Below are positions 5,500 through 59,125 of a stretch of DNA of 64,000 bases, one piece after another. Source of the DNA: a phage. Both the position numbers and the translations under genes were made by a program. Location of the stretch: sequence record PX880100.1; one strand, given 5' to 3'. Each line of letters begins with the position of its first letter. The first letter of the stretch is position 1. Under the pieces are notes generated by a model that was not told the origin of the DNA, did no database searches, and saw only the letters and a program-made list of their open reading frames with translations.

Positions 5500-7374
5500 T
5501 TATTTAGCTCGAATATCCTGATGTTTCACCCTGCCCATAACCTCGTGCTGTTTGCCGGGGTTAAATGGACGAGCACCCGGATTTCCAAGATACCCACAAA
5601 CTCGACGAGTTACTTCAAGAGTTTCGGGGTCATGATTACCACAGATAGGGCACTTAAATCCATCTTCGGATGCTATTGTTTCACCTAAGAATCCACATTT
5701 ACCACAAGAATCCACTGGAGTATTAATACCGAAGTAATGAACCTTACTAGCCGCATAATTAATAACCCATTCCAGTGCATCTGGGAATCGTTTCATATCC
5801 GGTAGTTCTACATAGGAAATGCACCCACCAGAAGCAATCGGAGTAAAGTTAGACTCATAATCAAATTTCACGTTAGGAGCAACTTTACGTTCCACATCAA
5901 GGTGGTGAGAGTTAGTGTAGTATCCTTTGGACAGAATATCTTCATGCTCCGGGAAATATTCACGGTCTAGACGACAAAAACGGTCGCATAGGGATTCTGA
6001 TGGTGTAGCATACAGACTATAACCTAGTTTAGTTTCTTCCTTCTTCTGATCGACTCTATCCCGCATGTACTGCAATACACGCTGAACAAACTTGATGCAG
6101 GTCTCGGACATTGTGTCTACATCTTTGCCAAACATGAACTGTAGCATTTCATGGCAGCCAATATACCCTAGAGATACAGAAGCACGGTTATAGAAATGAT
6201 CGAATACATATTCCTCAGGCCCCAAGCGTAACCCAAAGGCTCCTGACATATAGAGGATGGGTGCAGCTTTAGCTTGAATGTATTTTAAGCGATCAACTCT
6301 CCACTCCAACGCTTTTAATGCTGTATCCACACGTAGCTCAAGCAAATCAAAGAATAGGTCAATATTTCCCTCAGCTTCGATAGCAATTCTAGGCAAGTTT
6401 ACAGAAACAACACCTAAGTTATTACGACCGGCAGTTTCACCATCTTCTGTAGCAGCTAGGAATGAACGACAGCCCATAGAAACTTTGTAGTCCCCAGTAA
6501 CTTCCACAACCTTATCATAGCTGATATAATCTGGATACATACGTTCAGCAGTACATTTCATAGCTAACTTCTTGATGTCATAATTAACATCTCCTGGTTT
6601 CATGTTAACACCATCACGAAGTACAAATACCAGTTTCGGGAAGATAGCTGTACGTTTATTGATACCTAAACCATCCATGCGTACTTTCAGTATTGCTTTC
6701 TGTACTAGACGTGCTTCCCAAGAAGTTCCTAGACCAAAACCAAAGGTAATAAATGGACTCTGACCGTTAGAGTTGAACATTGTATTGATTTCATACTCTA
6801 GACCCTGACAGGCATCATAGACTTCCTTTTCAGTCATCTCCGTAGCCATTACTGATGCTTTGGCTTCATCCTTAGTCCAACGTTTTGCAAACGCATGATT
6901 TTTGTCATAGGATTTACGAACATAAGGGGCTAATACTTCATCAAGGCGATCTACAGAAGTACCACCATACTGATGGGAGCTAACCTGAGTGATAATCTGA
7001 GCAGTAATAGCCGCCGCAGTAGTAATAGAGTTTGGAGTGCTAATTTCAGCATTACCAACCTTCATACCATTCTTCAACATATCTTCCAGAGCTACCAGAC
7101 AACAGTTAGTCATGCCTAATGCAGCATAATCAGCATCATGGAAATGAATATCCCCAATCATATGAGCATTTCGAATCTGAATTGGCATTTCTTCTAGAAT
7201 CAGATACTTACTCAATTCACCTGCAAGCATATCCCTTTGTGTAGGGAAACGTTCTGAGGGTTTATTAGCATTATTAAACAGCAGCTCTTCATCTGCTGAC
7301 CCTTCGATAATCTCTTTGCAGTTTCTAATTAACGCCTGCATTTCTTTATACTTTAGTTCTTCATTGCGATTCAT
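5500..7374 (-). CDS. nrdD: anaerobic ribonucleoside-triphosphate reductase (class III RNR)
   Basis: 624 aa; C-terminal CPICG...RRVCGYLG zinc ribbon plus glycyl radical motif. Confidence 0.9.
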   Translation of the reverse strand: MNRNEELKYKEMQALIRNCKEIIEGSADEELLFNNANKPSERFPTQRDMLAGELSKYLILEEMPIQIRNAHMIGDIHFHDADYAALGMTNCCLVALEDMLKNGMKVGNAEISTPNSITTAAAITAQIITQVSSHQYGGTSVDRLDEVLAPYVRKSYDKNHAFAKRWTKDEAKASVMATEMTEKEVYDACQGLEYEINTMFNSNGQSPFITFGFGLGTSWEARLVQKAILKVRMDGLGINKRTAIFPKLVFVLRDGVNMKPGDVNYDIKKLAMKCTAERMYPDYISYDKVVEVTGDYKVSMGCRSFLAATEDGETAGRNNLGVVSVNLPRIAIEAEGNIDLFFDLLELRVDTALKALEWRVDRLKYIQAKAAPILYMSGAFGLRLGPEEYVFDHFYNRASVSLGYIGCHEMLQFMFGKDVDTMSETCIKFVQRVLQYMRDRVDQKKEETKLGYSLYATPSESLCDRFCRLDREYFPEHEDILSKGYYTNSHHLDVERKVAPNVKFDYESNFTPIASGGCISYVELPDMKRFPDALEWVINYAASKVHYFGINTPVDSCGKCGFLGETIASEDGFKCPICGNHDPETLEVTRRVCGYLGNPGARPFNPGKQHEVMGRVKHQDIRAK

Positions 7375-8844: not shown

Positions 8845-11175
8845 ATGAGCCATCGCATTGAAAAAGTAATTAAACGTGACGGTACTGTAGAAGACTTTGC
8901 TCCTGAAAAACTCAATGGTTGGGCAGAGTATGGTTGCAAAACAGTTGATGTAAGTTGGTCAGCCATTACTATGGCTGCTCAAAAAACTCTACCTAAAGGG
9001 GTTGTAGATTCCGATACTCTGATGGACGCATTAATTAAGGCTGCCGAAAGTCTTATCAAAGATAACCCAGCATATGATGTGCCCGCAAAGGAATTACGTC
9101 TTGCGCAAATGCGTAAACGTCTTTATGACTCTTTCGAACCGCCTTCTCTGCGCTTCTTCCACGACCATATGGTTAGCGTAGGTGCATGGGAAGACATGAG
9201 TGCATGGATTACCGATGAGCAATTTGAAGCTCTGAATCAGGTTATCGACCATGATCGTGACCGTCTTTTTACTAGTGGTGGACTGAAGCAGTTCTTTGAT
9301 AAGTATTCCCGGCGTAACATAGCCACTGGTGAAATTTATGAAACTCCGCAGTTTGCCTACATGGGTATGGCAATGGCGATGCTATCTCAACCTAACTGGA
9401 CAATTCTAGATGCAATCGACCTCTACAACGCAATGTCACTCCACAAAATCAACGTTCCTACGCCGCCACTGGTTGGTCTGCGCTCTAGTGACCGTGGATT
9501 TGCTAGTTGCTGCCTCGTGGATTCCACTGACACGTTGGATTCAATCGACACCGCCGAGCACATCGTCTTCAAAATGGTCGCAGCCAGAGCGGGAATCGGG
9601 TATCATCTTGAAAGCCGATCAATTGCTGATCCGGTGCGAAATGGGGCATTCCCGCATTCCGGAAAACTGCCATATTATCGACACATTGACCGCTCAGTAA
9701 AGGCTAATACTCAGCAAACTCGTGGTGGTTCTGCTACAGTGTCTTATCCATACTTCGATCCTGAAATCATTCAATTGATGCAGGTTAAGCAACAACGTGC
9801 TACAGATGAGAATAAAATCGATAAGATGGATTATTCTCTGAGCTTCAACAATCTTTTGTTAAAACGTTATCTGAAAAATGAAGATATTACGCTAATGTCA
9901 TACTTCTATGCTCCAGAAGTTCATGAAGCGTTTTATAGTGATGACGAGGCTAAATTTGAAGAAATCTACGTGGCAGCGGAGAAACGTGTGGCATCTCTTA
10001 CAAAGATCGACCACGAAGGAAAAACAGTTCCAGCAGCTCCTAAAGTCTGTGCAAAAGAAATCCTAGATACTTGGCTACGTATCCGAATGGAAACAGGACG
10101 TATGTATGCTCATCACATCGGGGAATCTAATCGTCACGGTAACTTCCTTGATCCGATCCGTATGACAAACCTTTGTGTTGAAATTACTCAGCCTACACGC
10201 CCGTTCCATCATATCACAGAGCTGTATAAGACAAAAGAGCAGCTTGATCAAATGAAGCCGGAGGATATTGGTGAAGTATCTCTGTGTAACTTAGGTGGTG
10301 TTGTACTTGGACGCATGGAATCTCTGGCTGAGTGGGAAAAAACTTGCTACATCCTTCTGAAATTCGTTGATACAATTATTGAAATTCAGGATTATCCATT
10401 CCCAACTATGGAATATACGGCTAAGAAACGTCGTAATGTTGGTATTGGCCTGATGAACGCAGCAGGTGCAATGGCAGCAGAAGGTCTGGCTTATGAAGGT
10501 ATTGAAGCCCGTAACTGGATTCACCGTGAGGCTGAAAAACTGTCTTACTTTCTGCATAAAGCCTCTGTACGCCTAGCTAAAGAACAGGGTGCATGTGAGT
10601 GGTTTGATCGTACTAAACCATCTAAAGGAATTCTGGTAATCGACACTTACAAGAAAACTGTTGATGAACTGGTATCCGTAGGTCTAGAAATGGATTGGGA
10701 GTCTCTGCGTGCAGATATTCTGAAATATGGTATGCGTAACTCTGTTCTGACTGCTCAGATGCCGGGAGAAAGTTCTTCTGTTCTGTTAGGTGTTACTAAC
10801 TCTATTGAACCGCCTCGTAAGATTGTATCTATCAAAGGTAGTGCAGTGAATAAAGTAATTGCAATTGCTCCGGGTGCAACCGATTGGGAAACGTTAATGA
10901 GCTATAAACTGGCTTATGATGTAGATCGTATTGAGTGGATCAAATGGGTAGCAACTATGCAGAAATTCTTCAGTCAGTCTATCAGTACGAATATGTACTA
11001 TGACTACACCAAGTTTGAGAATGAAATCATTCCTGGCCCAGTAGTAGTTCGTGATTTCATGACTGCTGTTAAGTATGGTTGGAAGACTTTCTATTACGCA
11101 AACTTCAACACCGCTAATGGTGGTGGTGCAGGAGAAGAATCCGCAGGCTGCGCTTCTGGTGGTTGTACCATCTAA
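8845..11175 (+). CDS. nrdA: ribonucleoside-diphosphate reductase large subunit (class Ia)
   Basis: ATP-cone-like N-terminus; NLCVEI active-site region; start trimmed to ATG with upstream AAGGAAAG. Confidence 0.9.
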   Translation: MSHRIEKVIKRDGTVEDFAPEKLNGWAEYGCKTVDVSWSAITMAAQKTLPKGVVDSDTLMDALIKAAESLIKDNPAYDVPAKELRLAQMRKRLYDSFEPPSLRFFHDHMVSVGAWEDMSAWITDEQFEALNQVIDHDRDRLFTSGGLKQFFDKYSRRNIATGEIYETPQFAYMGMAMAMLSQPNWTILDAIDLYNAMSLHKINVPTPPLVGLRSSDRGFASCCLVDSTDTLDSIDTAEHIVFKMVAARAGIGYHLESRSIADPVRNGAFPHSGKLPYYRHIDRSVKANTQQTRGGSATVSYPYFDPEIIQLMQVKQQRATDENKIDKMDYSLSFNNLLLKRYLKNEDITLMSYFYAPEVHEAFYSDDEAKFEEIYVAAEKRVASLTKIDHEGKTVPAAPKVCAKEILDTWLRIRMETGRMYAHHIGESNRHGNFLDPIRMTNLCVEITQPTRPFHHITELYKTKEQLDQMKPEDIGEVSLCNLGGVVLGRMESLAEWEKTCYILLKFVDTIIEIQDYPFPTMEYTAKKRRNVGIGLMNAAGAMAAEGLAYEGIEARNWIHREAEKLSYFLHKASVRLAKEQGACEWFDRTKPSKGILVIDTYKKTVDELVSVGLEMDWESLRADILKYGMRNSVLTAQMPGESSSVLLGVTNSIEPPRKIVSIKGSAVNKVIAIAPGATDWETLMSYKLAYDVDRIEWIKWVATMQKFFSQSISTNMYYDYTKFENEIIPGPVVVRDFMTAVKYGWKTFYYANFNTANGGGAGEESAGCASGGCTI

Positions 11176-48322: not shown

Positions 48323-48659
48323 ACTCTACTTGACGTTATGATTTCTGCATGTTATAATAACTCTATGAAATAACATAGAATAAAGAGATCCACCCGGATA
48401 CGGATAGTGGATGGGAAACTTCTATTTCCCCCGTAGCTTGTCGGAGGGCTAGGGAAATCTTAAGAAGTTTTGTACCATCTCACGCAATTCGTATCCCAGG
48501 GGTGGAGCATCTCTTCCAATCTTTGGGGGATCTTATATTTAAATTAAAGGTAAAACTTTTGACCACATAATTTACATTCAAGATGATACACTTGTTGCCA
48601 CCGCTCTTCCTAGGATGGCACGACACTTTCTAGTAGACTCCTAAGTTTCTAGGAAAATC

Positions 48660-49398
48660 CTGTCGTATTTGCACATATTATAGGGCAGTTTCTCTCCTGC
48701 TATAAATATCCTAGGCCGGTTTTCCTACACAGGGCGGTTATTGGGAGGGCGGTTATTTCTAGAAGACATTTTTCCAAAACACATTTCCAGAATTCATTGT
48801 CGGATTCGCACATTGTGTTTCTAGAAATTTATGGTCGGATTTGCACAATCGCCTAAGTTTTTAGGAACATATAATCTCCTGAAAATGGCAGCATTATTTC
48901 GGGCCGAAGGCCCATGATTGCCTGAGTTTTTAGAGCCACAAGAATTTTCGCTTGTCAAGCTATTTTGCCCCATTTAGCTAATAAAATTTTACCTTTTCTG
49001 CACTTATCTCAAATTAACCCAAATCTTCTCAACTCTTCCCCAAAATCCCCGCAAATCAGGTGCTCCGCACCAAACATGCACCTCTCTCACAGTTCTCTCA
49101 AATTTTTCTCGCTCTCTCAACTTCTCCCCGAACTCATACAATCACACACCCTCTAATCGAAGTCACAAAAATCTTGTCGGATTCGCACAAATAAACCCAT
49201 GTCGGATCTGCACATACTCTAGCTAATTCCACAGGATTGATGCGCAGCATCGGATTGCTGGAGTTTTTGGGAAAATTCATTGTCGGATTTGCACACTATA
49301 AAAATTTTTCGGGTCGGATTTGCACACTACCAAAAATTGTCGGATTTGCACATACACGCCCACGCGTAATCCATGGGGGCAAATGTCGGATTTGCACA
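48660..49398 (+). repeat. nine direct copies of the 15-bp motif TGTCGGATTTGCACA at irregular spacing (injection-stop-like region)
   Basis: Copies near 48660, 48798, 48834, 49175, 49199, 49280, 49312, 49338, 49384, all same orientation. Confidence 0.85.
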
Positions 49399-49441
49399 AA
49401 AGCGCAGGGCAATTGCCCTGCTCGCCTGAATGCGAATAAAA

Positions 49442-49612
49442 ATGAGAATGATTCTCATTTAAAAAGCGGAATGCGAATGATAATGATTCGTATTTAAGAA
49501 TGGAAATGAGAATTATTCAGGAAGTGAAACGATTCTCATTTAAAAAGTGGAATGATTATTAGTTACATAGTAAAACGCGAATGATAATGATTCGTATTTA
49601 AGAATGGAAGAG
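49442..49612. repeat. tandem repeats with embedded palindromes (AATGAGAATGATTCTCATT; CGAATGATAATGATTCG...)
   Basis: Two copies of each ~40-bp unit; related palindrome at 49939-49957; 18-bp palindrome GCAGGGCAATTGCCCTGC at 49404-49421. Confidence 0.8.
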
Positions 49613-49620
49613 AGAAACAC

Positions 49621-49810
49621 TATTATTTAAGTTATCCACAGACTTATTAACAGCACGATTTGACTTGACAGAATCCTAGCCATTTTGAGGCGTTATTAAC
49701 AGACTTATCCACAGCTTATCCTACTGTATAAATATACAGTATTCCTACGCAGTGAATAATTCTAATATAGCGTTAAAACGTCCTAGATCGCATTCTAACG
49801 CGTTTAATTT
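49621..49810. repeat. left ~180-bp inverted repeat with two consensus DnaA boxes (49632-49640, 49705-49713)
   Basis: TTATCCACA x2; imperfect reverse-complement match to 53280-53460. Confidence 0.75.
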
Positions 49811-50107
49811 TGTTGGGGATACTAAAACAAGGGCAAAATTGGAGGAGGCTTAGAAATTAGTTAGCTCGCTAACGATCACACAAGGCGACACGTAACACCC
49901 TAACCATTAGCAGGCTAACCATCGCGGGCGCGGTCAAATGAGAATCATTCTCATTTGAGAATTGGGGGCACTTCCCGATAGTTGCGCCCCGTGATTATTA
50001 CAGTAGTGGGCAACCGTTACGTTTTGCCCACTCCCGCCACTCATCTTGATACCTAGACTTGCGACGGCGTACTAAAAACCGTTTATACCAGTGATTAAAC
50101 CATTGTT

Positions 50108-50341
50108 TCATAAATCCTCCTCCGGTAGTCGATGCGTGATTTTTTCCTCCTCCCCGTAGGAATCCGCCAAATGCTGATAATAACCATCGTGATCATAAAT
50201 CACTTTATCATACTCGCCACGCTCGACCGCTTGCCGATTCTCCGGCGTATCGGGCACATAAAAAACATCAACCATTGTACTAGTTTTGGTCACAATAATT
50301 TTATTGCTCATAATAACTCCTAGTAAATATATTTTTGCCAA
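50108..50341 (-). CDS. hypothetical protein
   Basis: ORF track; GC-richer module. Confidence 0.4.
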   Translation of the reverse strand: MAKIYLLGVIMSNKIIVTKTSTMVDVFYVPDTPENRQAVERGEYDKVIYDHDGYYQHLADSYGEEEKITHRLPEEDL

Positions 50342-50411
50342 TAGTGGCGAACGTTATCGCCACCAGCGGAATCATTAGCTGCCTCAACATTACCAACGAA
50401 AATATATAATT

Positions 50412-50795
50412 TCATTGCGCCACCTTTCGAAACGCTGTTTCAATACTATCAGCGGTGGATTGAATATACGCGCCTTTCATTATCAGGCGCTCGGTGCACA
50501 CCTTGCGGAAAATATTAATAAAATCATCTTCATTTTCTGCAATTAACGCTTCACCCATAACCTGAACATCACAAGATGCAAAGGTCAAAAATTGAAACGC
50601 TAGTTCACGGGCAACGACCGCATTGATTTTATAATGCGCCTTGCCCTCATAAATATTAATAACGCCCTTATAAGCGGGTGAAAGCTGATTCAAATAGTTT
50701 GCTAGTAATGCCGGACGGCAATTAGCAACAAAACGATTGCCTTCATAAATAACCATTTTATAACACCCCACGAAACGCAGCGTAAAAGGTGGCAA
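50412..50795 (-). CDS. hypothetical protein
   Basis: ORF track; start uncertain. Confidence 0.4.
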   Translation of the reverse strand: MPPFTLRFVGCYKMVIYEGNRFVANCRPALLANYLNQLSPAYKGVINIYEGKAHYKINAVVARELAFQFLTFASCDVQVMGEALIAENEDDFINIFRKVCTERLIMKGAYIQSTADSIETAFRKVAQ

Positions 50796-50970
50796 AGTGT
50801 TTAACCGTTTCAGCGATCACGTTGCCGCGCTTGTCGAATTTTTTCTCAGTAACACGAAAGGCATTTTTATTACGTGCTACATATTCGATTTTACAGTCTT
50901 CACGCTCGAACGTGTTAACGTCCACCAGCTTAAAGCCTTTCGAACGTGCAAGGGAAACGTTACGAATCAT
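50758..50970 (-). CDS. hypothetical protein
   Basis: ORF track. Confidence 0.35.
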   Translation of the reverse strand: MIRNVSLARSKGFKLVDVNTFEREDCKIEYVARNKNAFRVTEKKFDKRGNVIAETVKHFATFYAAFRGVL

Positions 50971-51168
50971 TTTTATTCTCCTTTACCAGTCATGCAGCCC
51001 AGCAGATAAGAAAACGCAGCAATTACCGCGCCAATAATAACGGCGTGAACACCGAAAGCTATTGCAAACAACGATAAAATAGCGCCCAAGATACCCGCCA
51101 GAATAGCTCGAAAAATAATCATTTTTATTCTCCTAGTCAGTGGGGGATATAATATCCCCCGTTACTAA

Positions 51169-51399
51169 TTACATTAAAACAATTTTTGCAGCTTGTTTTT
51201 TAGTACAGTGTTCCGCTTTCAGCGTGTCCAGCAAAAAGCCCGCCGTTTGCTGATCGATTTTATCGGCGTTGTATAGTTCTTGGATGGTGTTATAAGTTTT
51301 AGCAATGCCGAACTCCTGCACCATTTCATGAATGATTACGCGATTAGACACCCAACCTTGAGCGGTGAACAGATGACTAGCAGAAGAGTATGCAACCAT
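51169..51399 (-). CDS. hypothetical protein
   Basis: ORF track. Confidence 0.4.
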   Translation of the reverse strand: MVAYSSASHLFTAQGWVSNRVIIHEMVQEFGIAKTYNTIQELYNADKIDQQTAGFLLDTLKAEHCTKKQAAKIVLM

Positions 51400-51503
51400 T
51401 TTAAGCCTCCAAATTTTTGGGAAATTTTCAATCCACCGTTTTGGTGTAAAGGCATTATAACAAAAAAGGCCACCATAAAAGGCGACCTTTACAAAACTTT
51501 ACA

Positions 51504-51998
51504 TTAGACTACCTGCAAGGATTCAATATTGAAACATCGTTTCAATTCGTCATGCAAGACAGCATATTCCTCCCATCGGGTACTATCAGGAATATAAACA
51601 AGCTGTTTTAGTCGATTTGCGTATATTACCGCTTTGTTACCAACTATCTCGACGCCACCATATTTAATAATTAATTTCATGACGGAATTAATAGGATCGC
51701 CGCCGTTTACATATGTGCCGGATTTACTTAACTGATAATGATAAAGACTTGCGTATACGTTTTCATTCTCATACCATTCGCCCGTTTCCTCATCCTCATA
51801 TCCATCGCTACCAAAACGAGAAGCATTATCAATAGCCATTTCGTGAGCTAAAGCGTCCAGATCCGTACCAGCAGGAACAAAATATTCCTCGGTATTCCCT
51901 TCCCCGCAATAGCCAGTATGACAATCGACTAAAATGATCATATCATGTTTAGCCGTGCTCACTTCTCCTAGCGAGAAGCCGTATTTTTCCTCAGCCAT
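51504..51998 (-). CDS. hypothetical protein
   Basis: ORF track; SD-like sequence upstream. Confidence 0.5.
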   Translation of the reverse strand: MAEEKYGFSLGEVSTAKHDMIILVDCHTGYCGEGNTEEYFVPAGTDLDALAHEMAIDNASRFGSDGYEDEETGEWYENENVYASLYHYQLSKSGTYVNGGDPINSVMKLIIKYGGVEIVGNKAVIYANRLKQLVYIPDSTRWEEYAVLHDELKRCFNIESLQVV

Positions 51999-52063
51999 TT
52001 ATTAGTCTCCTATTAGTTAACAAGGGAATAGTAAAGCGGGGAAATAATCCCCACTAGATATTA

Positions 52064-53074
52064 TTACTCGCTTTCGGTGTTAGTGGTAAAAGTAGAAATA
52101 TCGATACCTTTTACCATTTCATCAATCATTTCAGCGATGTTAAAACTTTGCACCATTTCCAGCATTGCCGCTTCCATAGCTGCGCCTGCTACCGCTTTCG
52201 CCTTTTGGTTACTCGGTGCGTACTGGTCAACCGCTACACTCAGCAGGTTGGCAATCACTACTCGACCAATAGGCGTATCGATATAACCTTTGATCATGAA
52301 CGGTGCTTTTTTAGCCGCTACTTTCGTAATTTGAGTCAGTGCAATTTTACCCGCTTCCAGTTTTGCAGCATTTACAACAGCGGATTTATTAGCGGCAACG
52401 ATGTTAGCAATCTTGGTCATGGTATTTTTTCCTTTGTTTTCAGTAGTTTGAGTATTAACATTTTGAGTGTTAGAATTTACAGCATGGTTTTCTACGCTGT
52501 CAATAATCTGATCTTCATCTTTCCAGAAAGAAAAACCAGCGCTTTCTATATCCCCATCATAAATATACGGGTATAACTCCCGTGGTAACAAAAAATTACC
52601 ATCGCCATCAAAAGCCATTATACCAGTATATTGAGATCCGTCGTTATCCGGCTTATGCCATCCAGCGGGTAAATACTTCCAGATAACATCTAAAAATCCC
52701 TCAATGCTAGAAAGTCCATTTATCAGATCAAGCCCAATAAGCTCGAAACCATTTATATTAAATGATTGACGGCCTGAATTGCTATGATACGCAACAATAT
52801 TATTACCCTGCGCAATAATAAAATCGGCATCCGGCCCCGCTCCCCTGCCTGTAAAGATATGGCAATCCCGATTATATAAAACTAGCGTTGCCCCTTGTTT
52901 ATATAACGGCAAAAAACCATCCATATCATAAGCGTCATAATCATCAAAAAAGTTTTGATGAATAGTCTCAATCTTGTTAATAAAATGTTTAATGCTGGTT
53001 GACTTGCTACCGTCCAGCAGGTTGCGCAGCGCCCCCTTTAATACGGTAGCATTATCAGGTTGATACAGCCTCAT
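52064..53074 (-). CDS. hypothetical protein (about 336 aa)
   Basis: Track ORF 52064..53242 trimmed to ATG 9 nt after GAGGGAGG. Confidence 0.5.
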   Translation of the reverse strand: MRLYQPDNATVLKGALRNLLDGSKSTSIKHFINKIETIHQNFFDDYDAYDMDGFLPLYKQGATLVLYNRDCHIFTGRGAGPDADFIIAQGNNIVAYHSNSGRQSFNINGFELIGLDLINGLSSIEGFLDVIWKYLPAGWHKPDNDGSQYTGIMAFDGDGNFLLPRELYPYIYDGDIESAGFSFWKDEDQIIDSVENHAVNSNTQNVNTQTTENKGKNTMTKIANIVAANKSAVVNAAKLEAGKIALTQITKVAAKKAPFMIKGYIDTPIGRVVIANLLSVAVDQYAPSNQKAKAVAGAAMEAAMLEMVQSFNIAEMIDEMVKGIDISTFTTNTESE

Positions 53075-53279
53075 TTGTTCGGCCTCCCTCGTTAATCGGT
53101 GAGTGAATGATATAGATATTTGTCCACTAGGGGCAAGAAAAAAGAAAATGTTTTTTATTCCTTGCCTAGCGCCTATTTTTATGCTAACCGCGCAGCGGTG
53201 CAATAAAGAGCAAACCACGGCGAAGCCACCAGGGCGACGCATTAAGGCTTTACTTTAATATTACCCCGCAGCGTTTAGC

Positions 53280-53460
53280 TCGTTAGAATGCGTTTTAAGC
53301 CGCTTAAAATTGATTGCAGTTGTTAACACTACCTTTTTACCCTGTATATTTATACAGTAGAATAACCTGTGGATAAGTCTGTGCAAAAGTCCTTATATCG
53401 CCGCCTATCGTGTCAAATTATTTTGTGCTGTGGATAACGTTGTGGATAACTTAAATGATA
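53280..53460. repeat. right ~180-bp inverted repeat with three consensus DnaA boxes on minus strand
   Basis: TGTGGATAA at 53368, 53429, 53441; reverse-complement partner of 49621-49810. Confidence 0.75.
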
Positions 53461-54180
53461 GTGGTTCTCACTTAGCTAGATGATTTCTTATAGTTATTAT
53501 TTCTCATTAATTTATATGTATATTATATATCATGAAATAATTAGTTAGCTAATGAGATTTTCCGTGATTAATAGTCAGCTAATAGTTTAGGCTGTTACAA
53601 TCCACCAGCATGATTATCATCCTAGCAATTATTAGCCTGCTATCTTTCTGATGCATACTAACAAATAAAAGTCAATTAATTTATTTCATAAAATAAGTAG
53701 TTATCCACTGGAAAATAAAAGTCAAGTGGATAACTAGGAAAATTTCATTTTTGCTTTTGGGGATAAGTTATCAACAGGGCTAGAATGCGCCTAAAACGCC
53801 CTAGAACGTGATGAAGTTTTTAGCCATCCCATCATAAGGGGATAAGCCGTTTATCGCTGCCACGAGCTTTTTAGATTTTGTCAAGTAGGGGAAAGCAAAT
53901 ATAAATGAAAAAATTACTTGCCTATTTGCTTTATTTTGTGGTATTCACGCGCCCGTTTCTTTTAATTTTAGGCCATCGCCGCACGGTGTCCGGTGAGTTT
54001 TGTCTTTACGTTTCTTTACAAAAATAAGGTTGCGCCATTTTTGGGAATCCCCTATTATTTATCACGTAGGGCGGCAATGACGAACTACACGGCGGGAAGT
54101 TTACCGCCACGCTCTTTAAAAATTGGGTACATCTTAAAGCCTATCGGCGGTAAACTTATTCATTATAAGGAATCGACGAT

Positions 54181-54384
54181 ATGAAACAAACTCTTTTGAT
54201 CACTGGTAAGCCTATTAAGGCACTAGATAGCAAAACAAAAAATTTGTTGACAGTAGCGCAAAGATCGGTAAAATATCGATTTAAGCAGTACAAGAAAGGT
54301 CGCCAGCAAGGTCTGGAAATGATCTGGCGAAATATTATGATTGACCTGAAAGAAAATCATAAAAAACTGCAAAAAATTGTTTGA
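54181..54384 (+). CDS. hypothetical basic protein (pre-early block)
   Basis: ORF track; AAGGAAT upstream. Confidence 0.4.
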   Translation: MKQTLLITGKPIKALDSKTKNLLTVAQRSVKYRFKQYKKGRQQGLEMIWRNIMIDLKENHKKLQKIV

Positions 54385-54610
54385 CAACCTAGCCGATAGG
54401 TTTTAAGATGTACCCAGTTCGATAAGAGCGATAACTTGATAAAATTTGACGGTCGGTGCTTACCATAATGCACCCCGCCCCCTAACGGGATATAGCGGCC
54501 TACGTGGAGTTCTTTAAATTGATTATAGCGGCGGGAGGATTGTTACTTATTACCTGCTACCTTCTAGCAGGTAATGCGGAACAATCCATCAAATAACTGG
54601 AGTTTATACT

Positions 54611-54862
54611 ATGCAAAACGTTATTACCGCGCCAAAAATTGGTCAATCCGTCTTTATTCCTTTCGTTACTAAAACGGATGAATTAACCGGAAAAGCCGAA
54701 CGCATTAAAGGTGCGGCGCTTATGCCGTTCGATACAATCGACGCGGTATACGCTGAAAATGAACGCAGTAACAACGGCAAGCCCGTTTTTAGCGTTCGCG
54801 TTAAATCCGGCGATGTTGTAAAGGTTGTTCAACGCAACGAAAAATGGGAAGCTGTTTTGTAA
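54611..54862 (+). CDS. hypothetical protein (pre-early block)
   Basis: ORF track; GGAG upstream; terminator hairpin downstream. Confidence 0.45.
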   Translation: MQNVITAPKIGQSVFIPFVTKTDELTGKAERIKGAALMPFDTIDAVYAENERSNNGKPVFSVRVKSGDVVKVVQRNEKWEAVL

Positions 54863-54963
54863 TTTAGTGTTAACTTTATATTCCCCTGAAATATGGGGAA
54901 TATAACGATTAACATTAAGTTAATCATTAAATCCCTTAAATTAAACTAATAGGAGTTTTTACC

Positions 54964-55371
54964 ATGACTAACGCAAAAACCGCAAAATTCGCATGGAATG
55001 AAGAAAACACTCAGAAAGCTGTTACCATGTACCAGCAGTTAATCAACGAAAACGGTTTAGATTTTGCAAATAGCGACGGCCTGAAAGAGATTGCAAAAGC
55101 AGTAGGCGCGGCCTCCCCCGTATCCGTTCGGTCAAAATTGACCAGTGCAAAAGCCTATCAAAAAAGCGATAAGCCGCGTAAAGTTGGCGGCGGTAGCTCT
55201 GTGCGTAAAGCTCACTATGTGCGAGTAATTGCAAAACACGCTATCGATTCCGGTATTATCAAAGACGCCGATGATCTGGCAAGCCTTGAAAGTGCTAAAC
55301 TGGAAACGCTGGACGCGGTGGCGCAACTGTTAGGCGTTGCCGATGAAGTAAAACAAGCCGCAGGCGAATAA
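54964..55371 (+). CDS. A2: A2-like pre-early protein
   Basis: 135 aa, upstream of A1-like gene, matching T5 pre-early layout; identity from size and context only. Confidence 0.5.
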   Translation: MTNAKTAKFAWNEENTQKAVTMYQQLINENGLDFANSDGLKEIAKAVGAASPVSVRSKLTSAKAYQKSDKPRKVGGGSSVRKAHYVRVIAKHAIDSGIIKDADDLASLESAKLETLDAVAQLLGVADEVKQAAGE

Positions 55372-55461
55372 TAGTTATACCTTGCCCCCTTCTAGTAAGG
55401 GGGCAATAATATAACTGTTTAGCGATAGTTATTTTCTTCCCTTAAATCAGGAGTTTTAAAA

Positions 55462-55659
55462 ATGGTTTTCTTTCCTACTGAATCTTTAATTCTAGGCTTA
55501 TTTATTATGGCGGCCTCGTTATTGTTCGCTTATTTTCAAAATGATTTAGATTCATATTATTTTAAGCGTAAGTCTAAATTGGCAAAGCGTTTAGGTCTGA
55601 TTTGTTTTATTGCCGCCGTTGCTTGTGGTGTTAGTTCTAGCCTTATGCCTTTAAATTAA
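55462..55659 (+). CDS. hypothetical small membrane protein
   Basis: Two hydrophobic helices. Confidence 0.4.
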   Translation: MVFFPTESLILGLFIMAASLLFAYFQNDLDSYYFKRKSKLAKRLGLICFIAAVACGVSSSLMPLN

Positions 55660-55749
55660 TGTTGCAAATTATAACGCCTATTGTTCGAGGCGTTATATTT
55701 GGCAATATTGCCATTATTAATCTAATCCCTTTAATGGAGTTTTATTACT

Positions 55750-57414
55750 ATGATTATTTCCGCAGAAAAACAAACCGTTATCCTGAAAATGGCCGCTGAC
55801 TTTAATTTCTATGGTAAACGTCTGCGCGCTACTAAACTGGAAGTCTGCGACGATATTTCGAAAGCGGTATACGATACTACTAAACACTCCACCGCCATTT
55901 GTGATTGGTTGGAAGCAAATAAGCCAGCGAAACCAAAAGCGGCAAAAGTAGCAAAAGCCATTAAAAACGATGAGCGCCCAGAAGCGGCTGGGATTGTTTC
56001 TAGCACGGTTGAGCAATGGGAAGTAAAACAAGGTAAACGCTTTATTATTACGTCGATTCAGAATAATACTTTCCCGCATAAAAACTTTTTAGCCTCACTG
56101 GAGCAATTTGCTAAATATATCGGTGCTGATTTGCTTGTTTCTAAGTATATTTATAATAAAAACGGCTTCCAGAATGGAGAAGGTGCGGATGGAATCAAAT
56201 ATGATTCCGCTTTTGATAAATATATTTGCAGCAAAAACGTGTTTTTAAATAACCGCCGTTTCGCTTTCATGGCTGAAATTAATGTTTTGCCAACCGCAGA
56301 TTATCCGCTTTCTGGATTCGCAGAAACTGCAACGGCTTTAAATATTGAAGGTCTGGCAATTGGTCACGCTAAAATTACCGCTGAAAGTGTGCCAGCTTTG
56401 AAAGGTGAAGTAGTGCGCCGCATGTATTCAACCGGAACGGCAACGCTCAAAAACTACATTCAGCAGAAAGCAGGACAGAAAGCGGAAGCACTTCATAACT
56501 TCGGTGCGCTGATTGTTGAGTTCGACGACGACGGGGAATTTTTTGTTCGCCAGCTTGAAACAATGGACGAAAGCGGGGTGTTTTATGATCTGAATGTTTG
56601 CGCTACTCCTGCCGGATGCTATGAAACATCGGGGCATGTTTTAGGCTTGCAATACGGCGATATTCACGCCGAAAAATTAGATGACGATTGCGCCGCTGCG
56701 TCATGGGCTGGCGAAAATAGCTTGCTTGATATTCTTAAACCAAAATATCAGTTTGTGCACGACGTTCACGATTTTACATCGCGCAATCATCATAACCGCG
56801 CGTCGGGTGTATTCCTAGCAAAACAGTACGCCGCCGGACGTGATAAAGTTCTGGATGATCTTATCGATACCGGTCGCGTGCTGGAGTCGATGGAACGTGA
56901 TTTTAGTCAAACGATCATCGTAGAATCTAATCACGATTTGGCGCTATCCCGTTGGCTTGATGATCGTAATGCTAACATCAAAGACGATCCCGCGAACGCG
57001 GAACTGTATCACCGCCTGAATGCTGCAATCTATGCGGCAATCGGTGAACACGACGAAACGTTTAACGTGCTAGATTATGCGTTGCGCAAGGTTGCAGGTT
57101 GCGAGTTTAACGCCATTTTTCTGACCACTGACCAATCTTTCAAGATTGCAGGCATTGAATGCGGCGTACACGGTCACAACGGCATTAACGGCAGCCGTGG
57201 CAATCCTAAGCAGTTTAAGAAATTGGGCAAGTTAAACACCGGACACACTCACACTGCCAGCATTTACGGCGGCGTATATACCGCTGGCGTTGCTGGTAGT
57301 CTGGATATGGGTTACAACGTGGGCGCGTCAAGCTGGACGCAAACGCATTTAATTACCTATGCAAACGGTCAGCGCACTTTGATTGACTTTAAGAATGGTA
57401 AATTCTTTGCGTAA
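55750..57414 (+). CDS. A1: A1-like pre-early protein (metallophosphatase-like)
   Basis: 554 aa; GDIH and ESNHD metallophosphatase-like motifs; context with A2 and dmp. Confidence 0.6.
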   Translation: MIISAEKQTVILKMAADFNFYGKRLRATKLEVCDDISKAVYDTTKHSTAICDWLEANKPAKPKAAKVAKAIKNDERPEAAGIVSSTVEQWEVKQGKRFIITSIQNNTFPHKNFLASLEQFAKYIGADLLVSKYIYNKNGFQNGEGADGIKYDSAFDKYICSKNVFLNNRRFAFMAEINVLPTADYPLSGFAETATALNIEGLAIGHAKITAESVPALKGEVVRRMYSTGTATLKNYIQQKAGQKAEALHNFGALIVEFDDDGEFFVRQLETMDESGVFYDLNVCATPAGCYETSGHVLGLQYGDIHAEKLDDDCAAASWAGENSLLDILKPKYQFVHDVHDFTSRNHHNRASGVFLAKQYAAGRDKVLDDLIDTGRVLESMERDFSQTIIVESNHDLALSRWLDDRNANIKDDPANAELYHRLNAAIYAAIGEHDETFNVLDYALRKVAGCEFNAIFLTTDQSFKIAGIECGVHGHNGINGSRGNPKQFKKLGKLNTGHTHTASIYGGVYTAGVAGSLDMGYNVGASSWTQTHLITYANGQRTLIDFKNGKFFA

Positions 57415-57470
57415 TTAAATTATTTCCCTAGCGGCTTGAAATAAAGCCGCTATTATAGGAGTCACAAAAA

Positions 57471-57728
57471 ATGAAAGTTACATTACCCAAAACATTGGAC
57501 GAAAAAGTATTCATTTCACCGGATGAAATGGAATCCGATAAAGTTTACAGCTTCGGGCCTATCCTAGCCTCCAAAACTGATACTGATGGTATTATTTCCG
57601 TCGATTCCCGTGATAATGATATTGTTCCTTTTGATGACGATGGCGCTTTTTATGAGTGGTTAAGCGATAATAATTTACCCGTAAACGGTGAATTAACGCC
57701 GTACCAGATGCAGATTATTATCAAATAA
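57471..57728 (+). CDS. hypothetical acidic protein
   Basis: ORF track; GGAG upstream. Confidence 0.4.
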   Translation: MKVTLPKTLDEKVFISPDEMESDKVYSFGPILASKTDTDGIISVDSRDNDIVPFDDDGAFYEWLSDNNLPVNGELTPYQMQIIIK

Positions 57729-57766
57729 ATTAAATCCATTATTAAACTAATTGGGGTTTTATAAAT

Positions 57767-58159
57767 ATGAAAAAGCAAAATATTCCATTCGATCGCGCTC
57801 AATCTTCCATTGTTCTGGTTTATTCTAATGGTGAACGTTACCACGTCGAGGCGGGGCACGTTATTGATGATCTGTTAGATTTCAATGACGCTTTGCAGGT
57901 TACTACGTTTGCCTATACGCAGGGCAAACTAACCAGCCATATTAAAGCAAAAGGTGTTTATGTTGACACGGTGAAACAAGAAACGATTATCATCGACGCC
58001 GTAAAATCCGGTCTAGCCTTTGCAGTTGTCGCGCCTTGCCTCGCTTGCCTCGATGATCAATTGATCAGCGCAAAAGTATATACTTGTGCGGGGATTCGTT
58101 CCAGCGTATCCGGTGAAGATGTTAGTTTTATTGCCGATGCGTTGGCTTATGGTCTTTAA
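57767..58159 (+). CDS. hypothetical protein
   Basis: ORF track. Confidence 0.4.
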   Translation: MKKQNIPFDRAQSSIVLVYSNGERYHVEAGHVIDDLLDFNDALQVTTFAYTQGKLTSHIKAKGVYVDTVKQETIIIDAVKSGLAFAVVAPCLACLDDQLISAKVYTCAGIRSSVSGEDVSFIADALAYGL

Positions 58160-58239
58160 TAGTTAATTTATTATTACCCGCTATCTACAAGCGGGTAATG
58201 CTGAATTAATCTAATCCCTTAAATGGAGAACGTAACAAA

Positions 58240-58974
58240 ATGAATAAAGCTATTATGAATATTTCCCGCAGCTTCCCGCATATTTCCCGCGTTATGATTT
58301 GGGATTTAGACGGCACTATCGTTAATTCTTTCCATCGTGTAGCGCCTTGCTTTGATAGTGAGGGCAATTTAGATTTAAATAAGTATAAAAATGAAGCGTG
58401 TAAACATCATTTAATAATGCAGGATTCTTTATTGCCATTGGTTGAATACATGCGCCAATGTATGAATGACGCAAATACTTTAAACATTATTTGTACCGCT
58501 CGACTAATGAGCAAATCAGATTATTACTTCCTGCGTAAACAAGGTCTGCGCGGTCGTGGTAATAGTAATATCCGCGTGTTTTCCCGTGATACACTACACA
58601 AATATTTTGAAGCTGATAAAGTTAGCGAGATATACCACAGTAAGGACGCAGTTTATAAATCTTATTATTTTGAATTATTTAAACAGTTATATCCGAACGC
58701 TGATTTTACAATGATTGATGATCATAAAGGTGTATTATCAGCGGCGGCATCATACGGATTTAAAACGCTGGACGCACAAGCCGTTAATGATATTCTATCA
58801 ATCGGCGTGGCATTGATAGGTGAAACCTTTATTGATGAATCTCTCGACGATGATAATGATTATCAGTTCCTAGCTGATCGTTTGAAATTATGCTGGGAAG
58901 GTATGACCGAGGAAGAACGCGCAGAATATAGTTGCAGCCCGCAACAATATATTGAGAAATTAAAAGTTGCGTAA
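58240..58974 (+). CDS. dmp: 5'-deoxyribonucleotidase (HAD-like)
   Basis: 244 aa; N-terminal MIWDLDGTIVNSF (DxDGT); pre-early context. Confidence 0.65.
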   Translation: MNKAIMNISRSFPHISRVMIWDLDGTIVNSFHRVAPCFDSEGNLDLNKYKNEACKHHLIMQDSLLPLVEYMRQCMNDANTLNIICTARLMSKSDYYFLRKQGLRGRGNSNIRVFSRDTLHKYFEADKVSEIYHSKDAVYKSYYFELFKQLYPNADFTMIDDHKGVLSAAASYGFKTLDAQAVNDILSIGVALIGETFIDESLDDDNDYQFLADRLKLCWEGMTEEERAEYSCSPQQYIEKLKVA

Positions 58975-59125
58975 TAATTAAAGTTGAAATAGTCACGGTG
59001 TGTAATGATAACATGCCGTGACTATTAGCTTGCTAAGTACCGGGCGGTAATGAGACTCATTCTCATCTGGGAGGCCACTGGACACACCTCCATGTGTAAT
59101 CTTATGAAATTTGGCAAAAGTCAAA

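Follow-up and report, generated by a model that had tools for sequence, protein, structure and literature searches.

The inverted repeats around the 011-017 operon of a T5-like phage are the known first-injected-DNA repeat pair of T5, carry LexA-box-like palindromes beside their DnaA boxes, and bracket an operon found in both orientations

A 64,000-nucleotide stretch of phage DNA (sequence record PX880100.1, read as one strand and referred to here as the window) contains two facing inverted repeats, at 49608-49810 and 53274-53473, that enclose a block of small minus-strand genes. These repeats and the genes that they bracket are already known; they are the long-known repeat pair of the first-injected DNA of phage T5. 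Each repeat, here called an arm, combines two pairs of DnaA boxes with a conserved palindrome that is a near-consensus LexA-box-like site, and the operon between the arms is found in either orientation among relatives of this phage. On balance, we consider it probable that the arms are two diverged host-protein landing pads of about 200 bp that bracket a dispensable, variable host-takeover operon, and that the far arm, at 49608-49810, aids the pause in DNA injection. Here, we describe the organization and conservation of the arms, the genes between them and their rearrangements, and we weigh the roles that have been or might be assigned to this region.

The far arm (plus strand) corresponds to the T5 element IRD'-spacer-IRC', in reverse orientation, which is part of the injection stop signal region, and the near arm (53274-53473, minus strand) to the T5 element IRC-spacer-IRD of Repeat Region 2. 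A repeat finder recovered the two arms as inverted repeats I1 (49608-49739 and 53342-53473; 132 nt, 77% complementary) and I3 (49773-49807 and 53274-53308), and in a single ungapped register they are 76.5% identical over 132 nt and 69.5% identical over 200 nt. Read inwards from its outer end, each arm has one DnaA-box pair, then a spacer of 40 bp, then another DnaA-box pair and, last, a LexA-type palindrome. The far arm carries its outer pair (TTATCCACA-GAC-TTATTAACA) at 49632-49652 and its inner pair (TTATTAACA-GAC-TTATCCACA) at 49693-49713, both on the plus strand, and the near arm carries its inner pair (TTTTGCACA and TTATCCACA) at 53368-53388 and its outer pair (TTATCCACA twice) at 53429-53449, both on the minus strand. 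The eight DnaA/DnaA* boxes are arranged as four same-strand pairs with 3-bp gaps and a constant distance between pairs; box starts (49632/49644, 49693/49705, 53368/53380 and 53429/53441) lie 12 bp apart within a pair and 61 bp apart from pair to pair (repeat family D10 in the far arm). Six of the boxes fit TTWTNCACA, and the other two depart from TTATCCACA at two positions and from TTWTNCACA at one. Perfect copies of TTATCCACA number six in the window against 0.66 expected, and five of these are inside the arms. The core palindromes are CTGTATAAATATACAG at 49724-49739 and CTGTATATTTATACAG at 53342-53357; a further shared element, CGCATTCTAACG, is present at 49789-49800 and, as its reverse complement, at 53281-53292. 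The longest exact arm-to-arm runs (19, 16 and 16 nt) coincide exactly with the inner DnaA pair and the palindrome, which points to selection on these putative binding sites. An initial annotation of the window, made without database searches, had described inverted repeats sharing DnaA boxes, a palindrome and CGCATTCTAACG, and all of these are borne out, with the box pairs and the palindrome far above chance. Judged by their sequence, the arms are conserved, highly non-random clusters of matches to DnaA and LexA sites.

The annotation had also suggested that the architecture of a T5-type injection-stop region, with its DnaA boxes and inverted repeats, might be conserved here, and the arms indeed equal the T5 pair. 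Davison (bioRxiv 10.1101/866236) placed a 131-bp IRC-spacer-IRD in Repeat Region 2 of T5 and an IRD'-spacer-IRC' in Repeat Region 3, described eight DnaA/DnaA* boxes in pairs 3 bp apart with a constant spacer, found the repeat pair conserved in 25 T5-like phages with a highly variable coding region between, and cited Heusterspreute et al. 1987 and Wang et al. 2005 for the repeats. The window carries two inverted copies of about 131 bp in its terminal repeat, one beside the direct and palindromic repeats termed DRD and DRE and the other between A2/hdi and 011, and shares with T5 the position in the terminal repeat, the 131-132-bp inverted repeat, the box pairs and the DRE/DRD flanks; DnaA boxes number eight here, six of which match the consensus, compared with seven in T5. 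Both arms are homologous to the T5 elements, the far arm being 92% identical to T5 9340-9542 and the near arm 78% identical to T5 6098-6296 (90-97% in closer relatives). The T5 record annotates the injection stop signal (iss) at 9140-10149, and by homology the far arm lies in this region, just inside the pause point.

The identity of the surrounding DNA is equally clear. A megablast search with 48400-54600 returned 481 phage records, nearly all of them Tequintavirus and relatives, with T5_ev212 (94%) as the top match, and the window is a Tequintavirus (T5-like) genome with a single collapsed terminal repeat. The T5-type terminal repeat, or first-step-transfer (FST) DNA, is present in one copy at approximately 48933-59085, reversed with respect to standard T5 coordinates; DNA to the left of approximately 48933 has the left-terminal-repeat (LTR) context of T5 and L6jm, and DNA to the right of approximately 59085 that of the right terminal repeat. 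The assembly has merged both terminal repeats into one copy, which early-region DNA adjoins at one end and late-region DNA at the opposite end.

For comparison we used 40 IMG/VR loci anchored on A2, together with the corresponding GenBank regions of T5, MM-1, My1, Slocum, PM135, KEY, PR1 and DU_PP_V. Conservation of the arms extends to each of the 39 IMG/VR loci in which the flanking sequence is long enough, as well as to KEY, My1, DU_PP_V and Slocum, and the arms occupy the same place in nine named phages, down to 62% A1 identity. The layout of the pairs and the orientation of the arms relative to A1 are kept in T5, My1, DU_PP_V, Slocum, KEY and IME260. An arm shares 87-98% identity with its orthologues in other Tequintavirus/Epseptimavirus phages, against only 73-80% with the second arm of its own genome; the duplication is thus old, the arms are not undergoing homogenisation, and any function that relied on base pairing between them is unlikely. 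When 22 arms from 11 phages were aligned, all in the direction from outside to inside, conservation was highest in the block made up of the inner DnaA pair, then GGTTATCCTAC, then the palindrome. The outer DnaA pair of the far arm is degenerate (TTATACA...) in KEY, IME260, Sugarland, My1, DU_PP_V and Slocum, in which the inner pair and the palindrome are intact, so that the inner half of each arm seems to be its functional core.

Ordered, same-orientation pairs of DnaA boxes recall the arrays of oriC, a comparison that Davison (bioRxiv 10.1101/866236) likewise makes, and the arms might in principle form a replication origin or an element that titrates or reactivates DnaA, similar to datA or DARS. 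The origins of T5 have been mapped near mid-genome, however, and its replication genes are carried on second-step DNA that is not yet in the cell (Davison, bioRxiv 10.1101/866236). Two to four copies per infecting genome would be too few to titrate the DnaA of a cell, and control of host initiation would be of little value when host DNA is destroyed within minutes. We therefore regard an origin or titration role as very unlikely. The region had initially been proposed as a replication or injection-control element, and of these two suggestions the first is unlikely, given the mid-genome position of the T5 origins, and the second is upheld by the T5 iss architecture.

The palindrome of each arm, which follows the inner DnaA pair, resembles an SOS box. 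The consensus LexA box of E. coli is TACTG(TA)5CAGTA. The far-arm site, TACTGTATAAATATACAGTA at 49722-49741, matches this consensus at 19 of 20 positions, with one mismatch, and the near-arm site, CCCTGTATATTTATACAGTA at 53340-53359, at 17 of 20. No site within three mismatches of the consensus is expected by chance in the window, and CTGT-N8-ACAG occurs three times against 0.52 expected. We also scored the window with a position weight matrix (PWM) built from known E. coli SOS boxes, in whose sequences small errors are possible. The far-arm site scored 25.7 bits, above every E. coli box of the training set, and the near-arm site 22.1 bits; the training boxes themselves scored 7.6-23.3 bits (median 18.3) when each was left out in turn, the next best site in the window 13.8 bits, and the best site across 20 shuffles 16.6 bits. 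Across the 22 aligned arms the CTG, T8, T12 and the CA of ACAG are invariant, and the remaining positions differ in one to three arms. CTGT-N8-ACAG is kept in nearly all arms, and the CTGG/CCAG variants are also seen in real SOS boxes. LexA-like boxes are present at both arms in 12 of the 13 phages examined, including Proteus phage PM135, and PR1 alone among the 13 has none.

The arm sites thus have what the sequence of a LexA operator calls for, namely CTGT-N8-ACAG with an AT-rich centre close to the consensus, and they match as well as E. coli SOS boxes do, with PWM scores as high or higher. They differ from those boxes in their setting, a non-coding repeat of a virulent phage, beside DnaA boxes and with no overlapping promoter. 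A promoter scan found no strong promoter overlapping either box, the promoter-like site of 011 being some 200 bp away, and for this reason we describe the palindrome as LexA-box-like rather than as an SOS-regulated operator. The words 'LexA' and 'SOS' do not occur in Davison's text (bioRxiv 10.1101/866236), and no link between LexA and T5 was found in the literature that we searched, which did not extend to older T5 papers, so that an earlier mention is possible.

Between the arms lie seven minus-strand open reading frames (ORFs), as first annotated, and these are homologues of T5.011,.012,.013,.014,.015 and.017 together with a gene for a 164-aa protein. The T5.011 homologue (52064-53074, 336 aa) is 89% identical to its T5 counterpart and belongs to the Pfam family DUF7566, which it matches over residues 2-336 (E 1e-113; 380.9 bits against a cutoff of 27). 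It is followed by the 164-aa gene (51504-51998; phrog_6741, the My1_018 family), which is absent from T5 and lies between 011 and 012, and by the homologues of T5.012 (51169-51399, 76 aa, 84% identity), T5.013 (50973-51122, 49 aa, 63% identity with an 11-residue gap), T5.014 (50758-50970, 70 aa, 100% identity; phrog_4227), T5.015 (50412-50756, 114 aa, 94% identity) and T5.017 (50108-50311, 67 aa from its ATG, 91% identity; phrog_6973). An additional minus-strand ORF of 37 aa (49998-50111) is conserved with T5 9154-9264 (84%), where it is unannotated. The order and strand of T5.011 to T5.017 are retained at 63-100% protein identity, and T5.016 and the HNH gene hegG are absent from this phage. 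The T5.013 homologue encodes two hydrophobic helices and is 10 residues shorter than T5 gp013; it is the hydrophobic peptide of about 49 residues noted earlier, correctly recognised and misplaced at 50989-51123. PHROG families could be assigned to seven of the eight ORFs tested, the exception being the 37-aa ORF, and with DUF7566 in the 336-aa protein the original view that the genes had no recognisable motifs and could not be placed does not hold. The initial annotation had stated that its case for an unplaced module would fall if all T5-like phages had the same repeats and the same genes at the same position, with homologues of known pre-early function. Alignment with T5-like genomes reveals essentially this, the same repeats at the same position and homologues of the pre-early genes T5.011-T5.017, so that the feature is one already known.

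What is known of these genes in T5 indicates a role in the early attack on the host. Genes 008, 011 and 015 have toxic effects in E. coli, and the product of 015 is an Ung-dependent nickase of abasic sites (Mahata 2021, PMC8201957). Toxicity of 011, 013 and 015 has also been reported, with nucleoid disorganisation caused by 011 and lysis by 013 alone; in the same work 011 was highly toxic and hard to clone, and a T5 mutant lacking hegG through 017 was viable and formed smaller plaques (Annor 2026, bioRxiv 10.64898/2026.04.02.716235). The genes between the arms are thus, by homology, dispensable pre-early host-takeover genes. The PHROG label 'endonuclease nicking abasic sites generated by host Ung' sits on phrog_4227, the family of the 70-aa T5.014 homologue, and the 114-aa homologue of T5.015, the gene named by Mahata et al., is in phrog_4379 ('unknown function'). 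Many GenBank/RefSeq records carry the nickase label on a 213-nt gene, and the label on the T5.014 family may be an off-by-one annotation error.

Structure prediction, which had been proposed for the two largest products, was informative for one of them. The AlphaFold2 (AF2) model of the 164-aa protein is confident (predicted local distance difference test score, pLDDT, 87; predicted template modelling score, pTM, 0.82), has no match in the PDB, and in BFVD has significant matches to uncharacterised phage proteins, mainly of Demerecviridae, including My1_018 (J9QP87); the model predicts, with confidence, a new fold. Alignment of this family reveals invariant TGxCG and NGGD motifs, and several homologues carry a cysteine-rich, zinc-ribbon-like CPEC...C..C insert in place of an acidic loop at residues 66-75. 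The AF2 model of gp011, built on a 25-sequence alignment, is poor (mean pLDDT 54, pTM 0.46).

The gene content between the arms is variable. The distance from arm to arm ranges from 1454 to 3950 bp in 39 loci, depending on which genes, among them g011, the 164-aa gene, g012 and g017, a phage carries, and the 164-aa gene is found in 14 of the 39 IMG/VR loci that have both arms. The identity of g011 falls from 99% to 33% in records whose A1 is mostly at least 90% identical. These comparisons mark g011 as an allele-replacement hot spot, a pattern that would be expected of a host-interaction gene under diversifying exchange. Among phages with A1 at least 90% identical, gp011 alleles fall into classes at 90% identity or more, about 75%, about 56%, 46% and about 33%; the conserved part of the protein, out to My1, Slocum and PM135, is the C-terminal 120 residues.

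Inverted repeats that bracket small genes of differing content, with g011 alleles this divergent next to a conserved A1, could be the ends of a mobile or recently acquired cassette, whether of an element resembling a transposon or of a module brought in when the repeats recombined. Neither Pfam nor PHROG reveals a transposase, integrase or invertase among the ORFs. The arms are at the same place in 39 of 39 loci and in the nine named phages, and their greater likeness to orthologues than to partners shows them to be ancient rather than renewed by transposition. Nor is the base composition anomalous. G+C content is 41.5% in the module, against 40.5% for the terminal repeat in its entirety, 39.1% for the window and 35.1% for the interval 43-47 kb; the 45-53% first reckoned for the module reduces to a slight shift that is common to the whole terminal repeat. 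A transposon with terminal inverted repeats was rejected, there being no match to a transposase family and the same site in all relatives, and we consider a mobile or recently acquired cassette highly improbable. The idea of a cassette acquired by recombination between the repeats, raised at the outset, thus finds no support as an acquisition and holds in a weaker form, in the variable content, the divergent g011 alleles and the inversion of the operon described below.

Scanning viral contigs with an alignment of A1 recovered the contigs already obtained with A2, and the more distant phages were taken from GenBank. In IME260 and Sugarland, whose A2 and A1 are 65% and 74% identical to those of the window, the region between the arms carries on the A1 strand g011 (E 9e-46), then the 164-aa gene (3e-21), then a 015-like gene (3e-6). 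My1 has g011, the 164-aa gene and 017 in the same inverted arrangement, and in DU_PP_V the block is co-directional with A1, as judged from annotated strands and gene sizes alone. KEY, Slocum, PM135 and PR1 have the operon in the T5 orientation, as do 36 of 36 Tequintavirus/Epseptimavirus-like loci. The orientation of the arms relative to A1 is unchanged in phages of either kind. By gene order and strand, therefore, the operon is inverted in Sugarlandvirus and Mccorquodalevirinae between arms of unchanged orientation. A neighbour-joining tree of A1 groups the T5 and Sugarland groups with 100% bootstrap support and KEY, Slocum, PM135 and PR1 with 96%; if this tree reflects the history of the locus, its splits and the pattern of orientations require at least two flips. 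These comparisons suggest that the operon has been flipped at least once, and probably twice, in the evolution of the Demerecviridae. Recombination between the arms would be the natural explanation. Davison (bioRxiv 10.1101/866236) noted of this region that in Types 2 and 3 it is 'read in the opposite direction', and described it as replaced by other sequences. The word 'inversion' is absent from that text, and we found no report of an operon inversion in the literature searched, in which older T5 papers were not included and where an earlier mention may exist.

A gene block that lies between inverted repeats and is found in both orientations among relatives is reminiscent of the invertible G segment of Mu and C segment of P1, and raises the question of whether a Gin/Cin/Hin-type switch flips the cassette during growth. 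Unlike those segments, the region contains no invertase; there is no recombinase gene among the ORFs or their neighbours, and no serine invertase was identified. The arms are long (about 200 bp) and diverged, with just 70-77% identity and no uninterrupted match longer than 19 nt, and orientation differs between genera and is fixed within each genus, as in the 36 like-oriented loci. A programmed switch is extremely improbable, and the flip is an evolutionary inversion.

A more serious alternative is that the arms control transcription and not injection, serving as operators or insulators that depend on host factors; through them LexA and DnaA would adjust expression of the 011 operon and from the divergent hdi/A2/A1 promoters. 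The 011 promoter is separated from the leftward promoters by the near arm, in either orientation of the operon an arm with an innermost LexA-type box is upstream of g011, and tight control would be useful for a gene as toxic as 011. The promoter-like site upstream of 011 (TTGCCC-18-TATCAT, 53107-53136, minus strand) has the position of an annotated T5 promoter (6411-6489) and is probably its positional equivalent; the promoter and terminator scan, which gave 31 promoter-like sites against 18.9 expected and 12 terminator-like sites against 6.7, was used only to place sites annotated in T5. The LexA-type box is about 200 bp upstream of this promoter-like site and not over it, however. Furthermore, IME260 and My1 have extra, opposite-strand genes between the far arm and g011, and in T5-type genomes the far arm is downstream of the terminator of the operon. 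We regard transcription control as unlikely, while giving it some weight.

Control of injection is the accepted reading of this region, and the model that we favour extends the DnaA model of Davison (bioRxiv 10.1101/866236) by a LexA site. The facing pads would be two diverged copies of a host-protein landing site of about 200 bp, and the operon of 011, the 164-aa gene,.012,.013,.014,.015 and.017 would have a promoter of its own immediately inward of the near arm. Of the DNA that enters ahead of the injection pause at about 8% of the genome, the far arm would come last. The most likely role of the far arm would be to be bound on entry by pre-existing host proteins, for which the candidates are DnaA, which is largely membrane-associated, and probably LexA, and which would help to arrest or anchor the DNA until A1 and A2 have been made. 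The near arm would be an ancient, non-essential duplicate that may offer a second anchoring point. The conserved pads also enclose a stretch in which genes are gained and lost and alleles are replaced. Two-step transfer has been demonstrated only for T5 and BF23 (Davison, bioRxiv 10.1101/866236), and for the present phage we infer it on the grounds of homology and because A1 and A2 are both present.

Several observations weigh against this model or parts of it. The stop mechanism based on DnaA is a published hypothesis, not a result (Davison, bioRxiv 10.1101/866236), binding of DnaA and LexA to the arms is predicted from sequence, and a protein on DNA that is already inside the cell would be no obvious block to further entry. 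The near arm, which in T5 lies between hegG and 011, must presumably be gone in the viable hegG-to-017 deletion mutant and is absent from PR1-type phages (Davison, bioRxiv 10.1101/866236), so that having both arms is not a requirement. A phage dimer such as A2 could equally be what recognises the palindrome; A2, considered as a possible LexA-like winged-helix protein, had no Pfam match at E up to 1. With respect to the inversion, local alignments of the inner arm flanks slightly favoured swapped flanks in IME260 (41 against 28 and 28 against 22) and did not in My1, and did not locate the breakpoints within the arms of either phage; given the extra genes of My1 and IME260, the inverted segment may not have spanned the whole distance between the arms. 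Finally, T5 plates on recA hosts, and if this is so, LexA cleavage is not needed to restart injection.

Two further proposals go beyond the injection model, and both are offered tentatively. It is possible, although we doubt it somewhat, that each arm is a composite DnaA and LexA module, in which case the FST DNA would be held or read by two host sensors, one of replication state (DnaA) and one of DNA-damage state (LexA). A separate and equally speculative suggestion is that the mirrored pads make the accessory host-takeover operon a flippable and exchangeable slot that has been repeatedly inverted in the Demerecviridae.

The DNA around the arms contains other repeats and sites that have counterparts in T5. 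About nine direct repeats of TGTCGGATTTGCACA at 48645-49405 (plus strand; repeat families D1 and D4-D6) represent Davison's DRD and extend beyond the inner end of the terminal repeat; in T5, nine DRD repeats overrun the LTR by 270 bp (Davison, bioRxiv 10.1101/866236). Palindromic repeats of AAATGAGAATGATTCTCATTT, of DRE/DRC type, lie just outside the far arm at 49437-49616 (plus strand; families D2, D3 and I4), and the shear point of T5 FST DNA maps to DRE2 (Davison, bioRxiv 10.1101/866236). Further AAATGAGAATGATTCTCATTT copies at 49936-49961, just inside the far arm, and at 53453-53478, abutting the outer edge of the near arm, indicate that the mirrored region is larger than the 132-nt core. 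The possibility that the DRE palindromes are Fur boxes (TGAGAATGATTCTCA compared with TGATAATNATTATCA) was rejected, since the 15 matches in the window at three or fewer mismatches do not differ significantly from the 9.9 expected. A perfect 7-1-7 Fur-box consensus, TGATAATGATTATCA, occurs at 58851-58865, corresponding to T5 coordinate ~270, which would place it inside the dmp homologue. DnaA-like boxes are also found outside the arms, in the equivalent of Repeat Region 1 (53698-53736 and 53758-53776), as a palindromic pair, TAGTTATCCACTGGA and TCAAGTGGATAACTA, after which come TTATCCCCA and TTATCAACA. The homologue of hdi (T5.008) at 54181-54384 lies between the two halves of a 39-nt inverted repeat (85%; 54110-54148 and 54392-54430), and near-consensus sigma-70 promoters within or beside this gene (TTGACA-16-TAAAAT at 54247 and TTGACA-17-TAAGAT at 54381) match T5 P-H22 and P-D/E20, which overlap hdi. 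The A2 gene is at 54964-55371.

The repeats described here rediscover a textbook peculiarity of T5 and are no new kind of element. What the comparison changes is the reading of the region in Klebsiella and Pectobacterium phages, where DNA taken to be replaced is the same operon turned around, and this matters when pre-early gene sets are compared across the family. The locus also touches a question that is some sixty years old, namely why injection of T5 DNA stops at 8% and how it is restarted. If real, a family-wide LexA-type site beside the DnaA boxes would supply a second, testable host factor for the injection stop, and a reading by two sensors, if true, would couple the injection pause, or else the programme of pre-early expression, to an SOS status for which the phage is itself responsible, through its degradation of host DNA.

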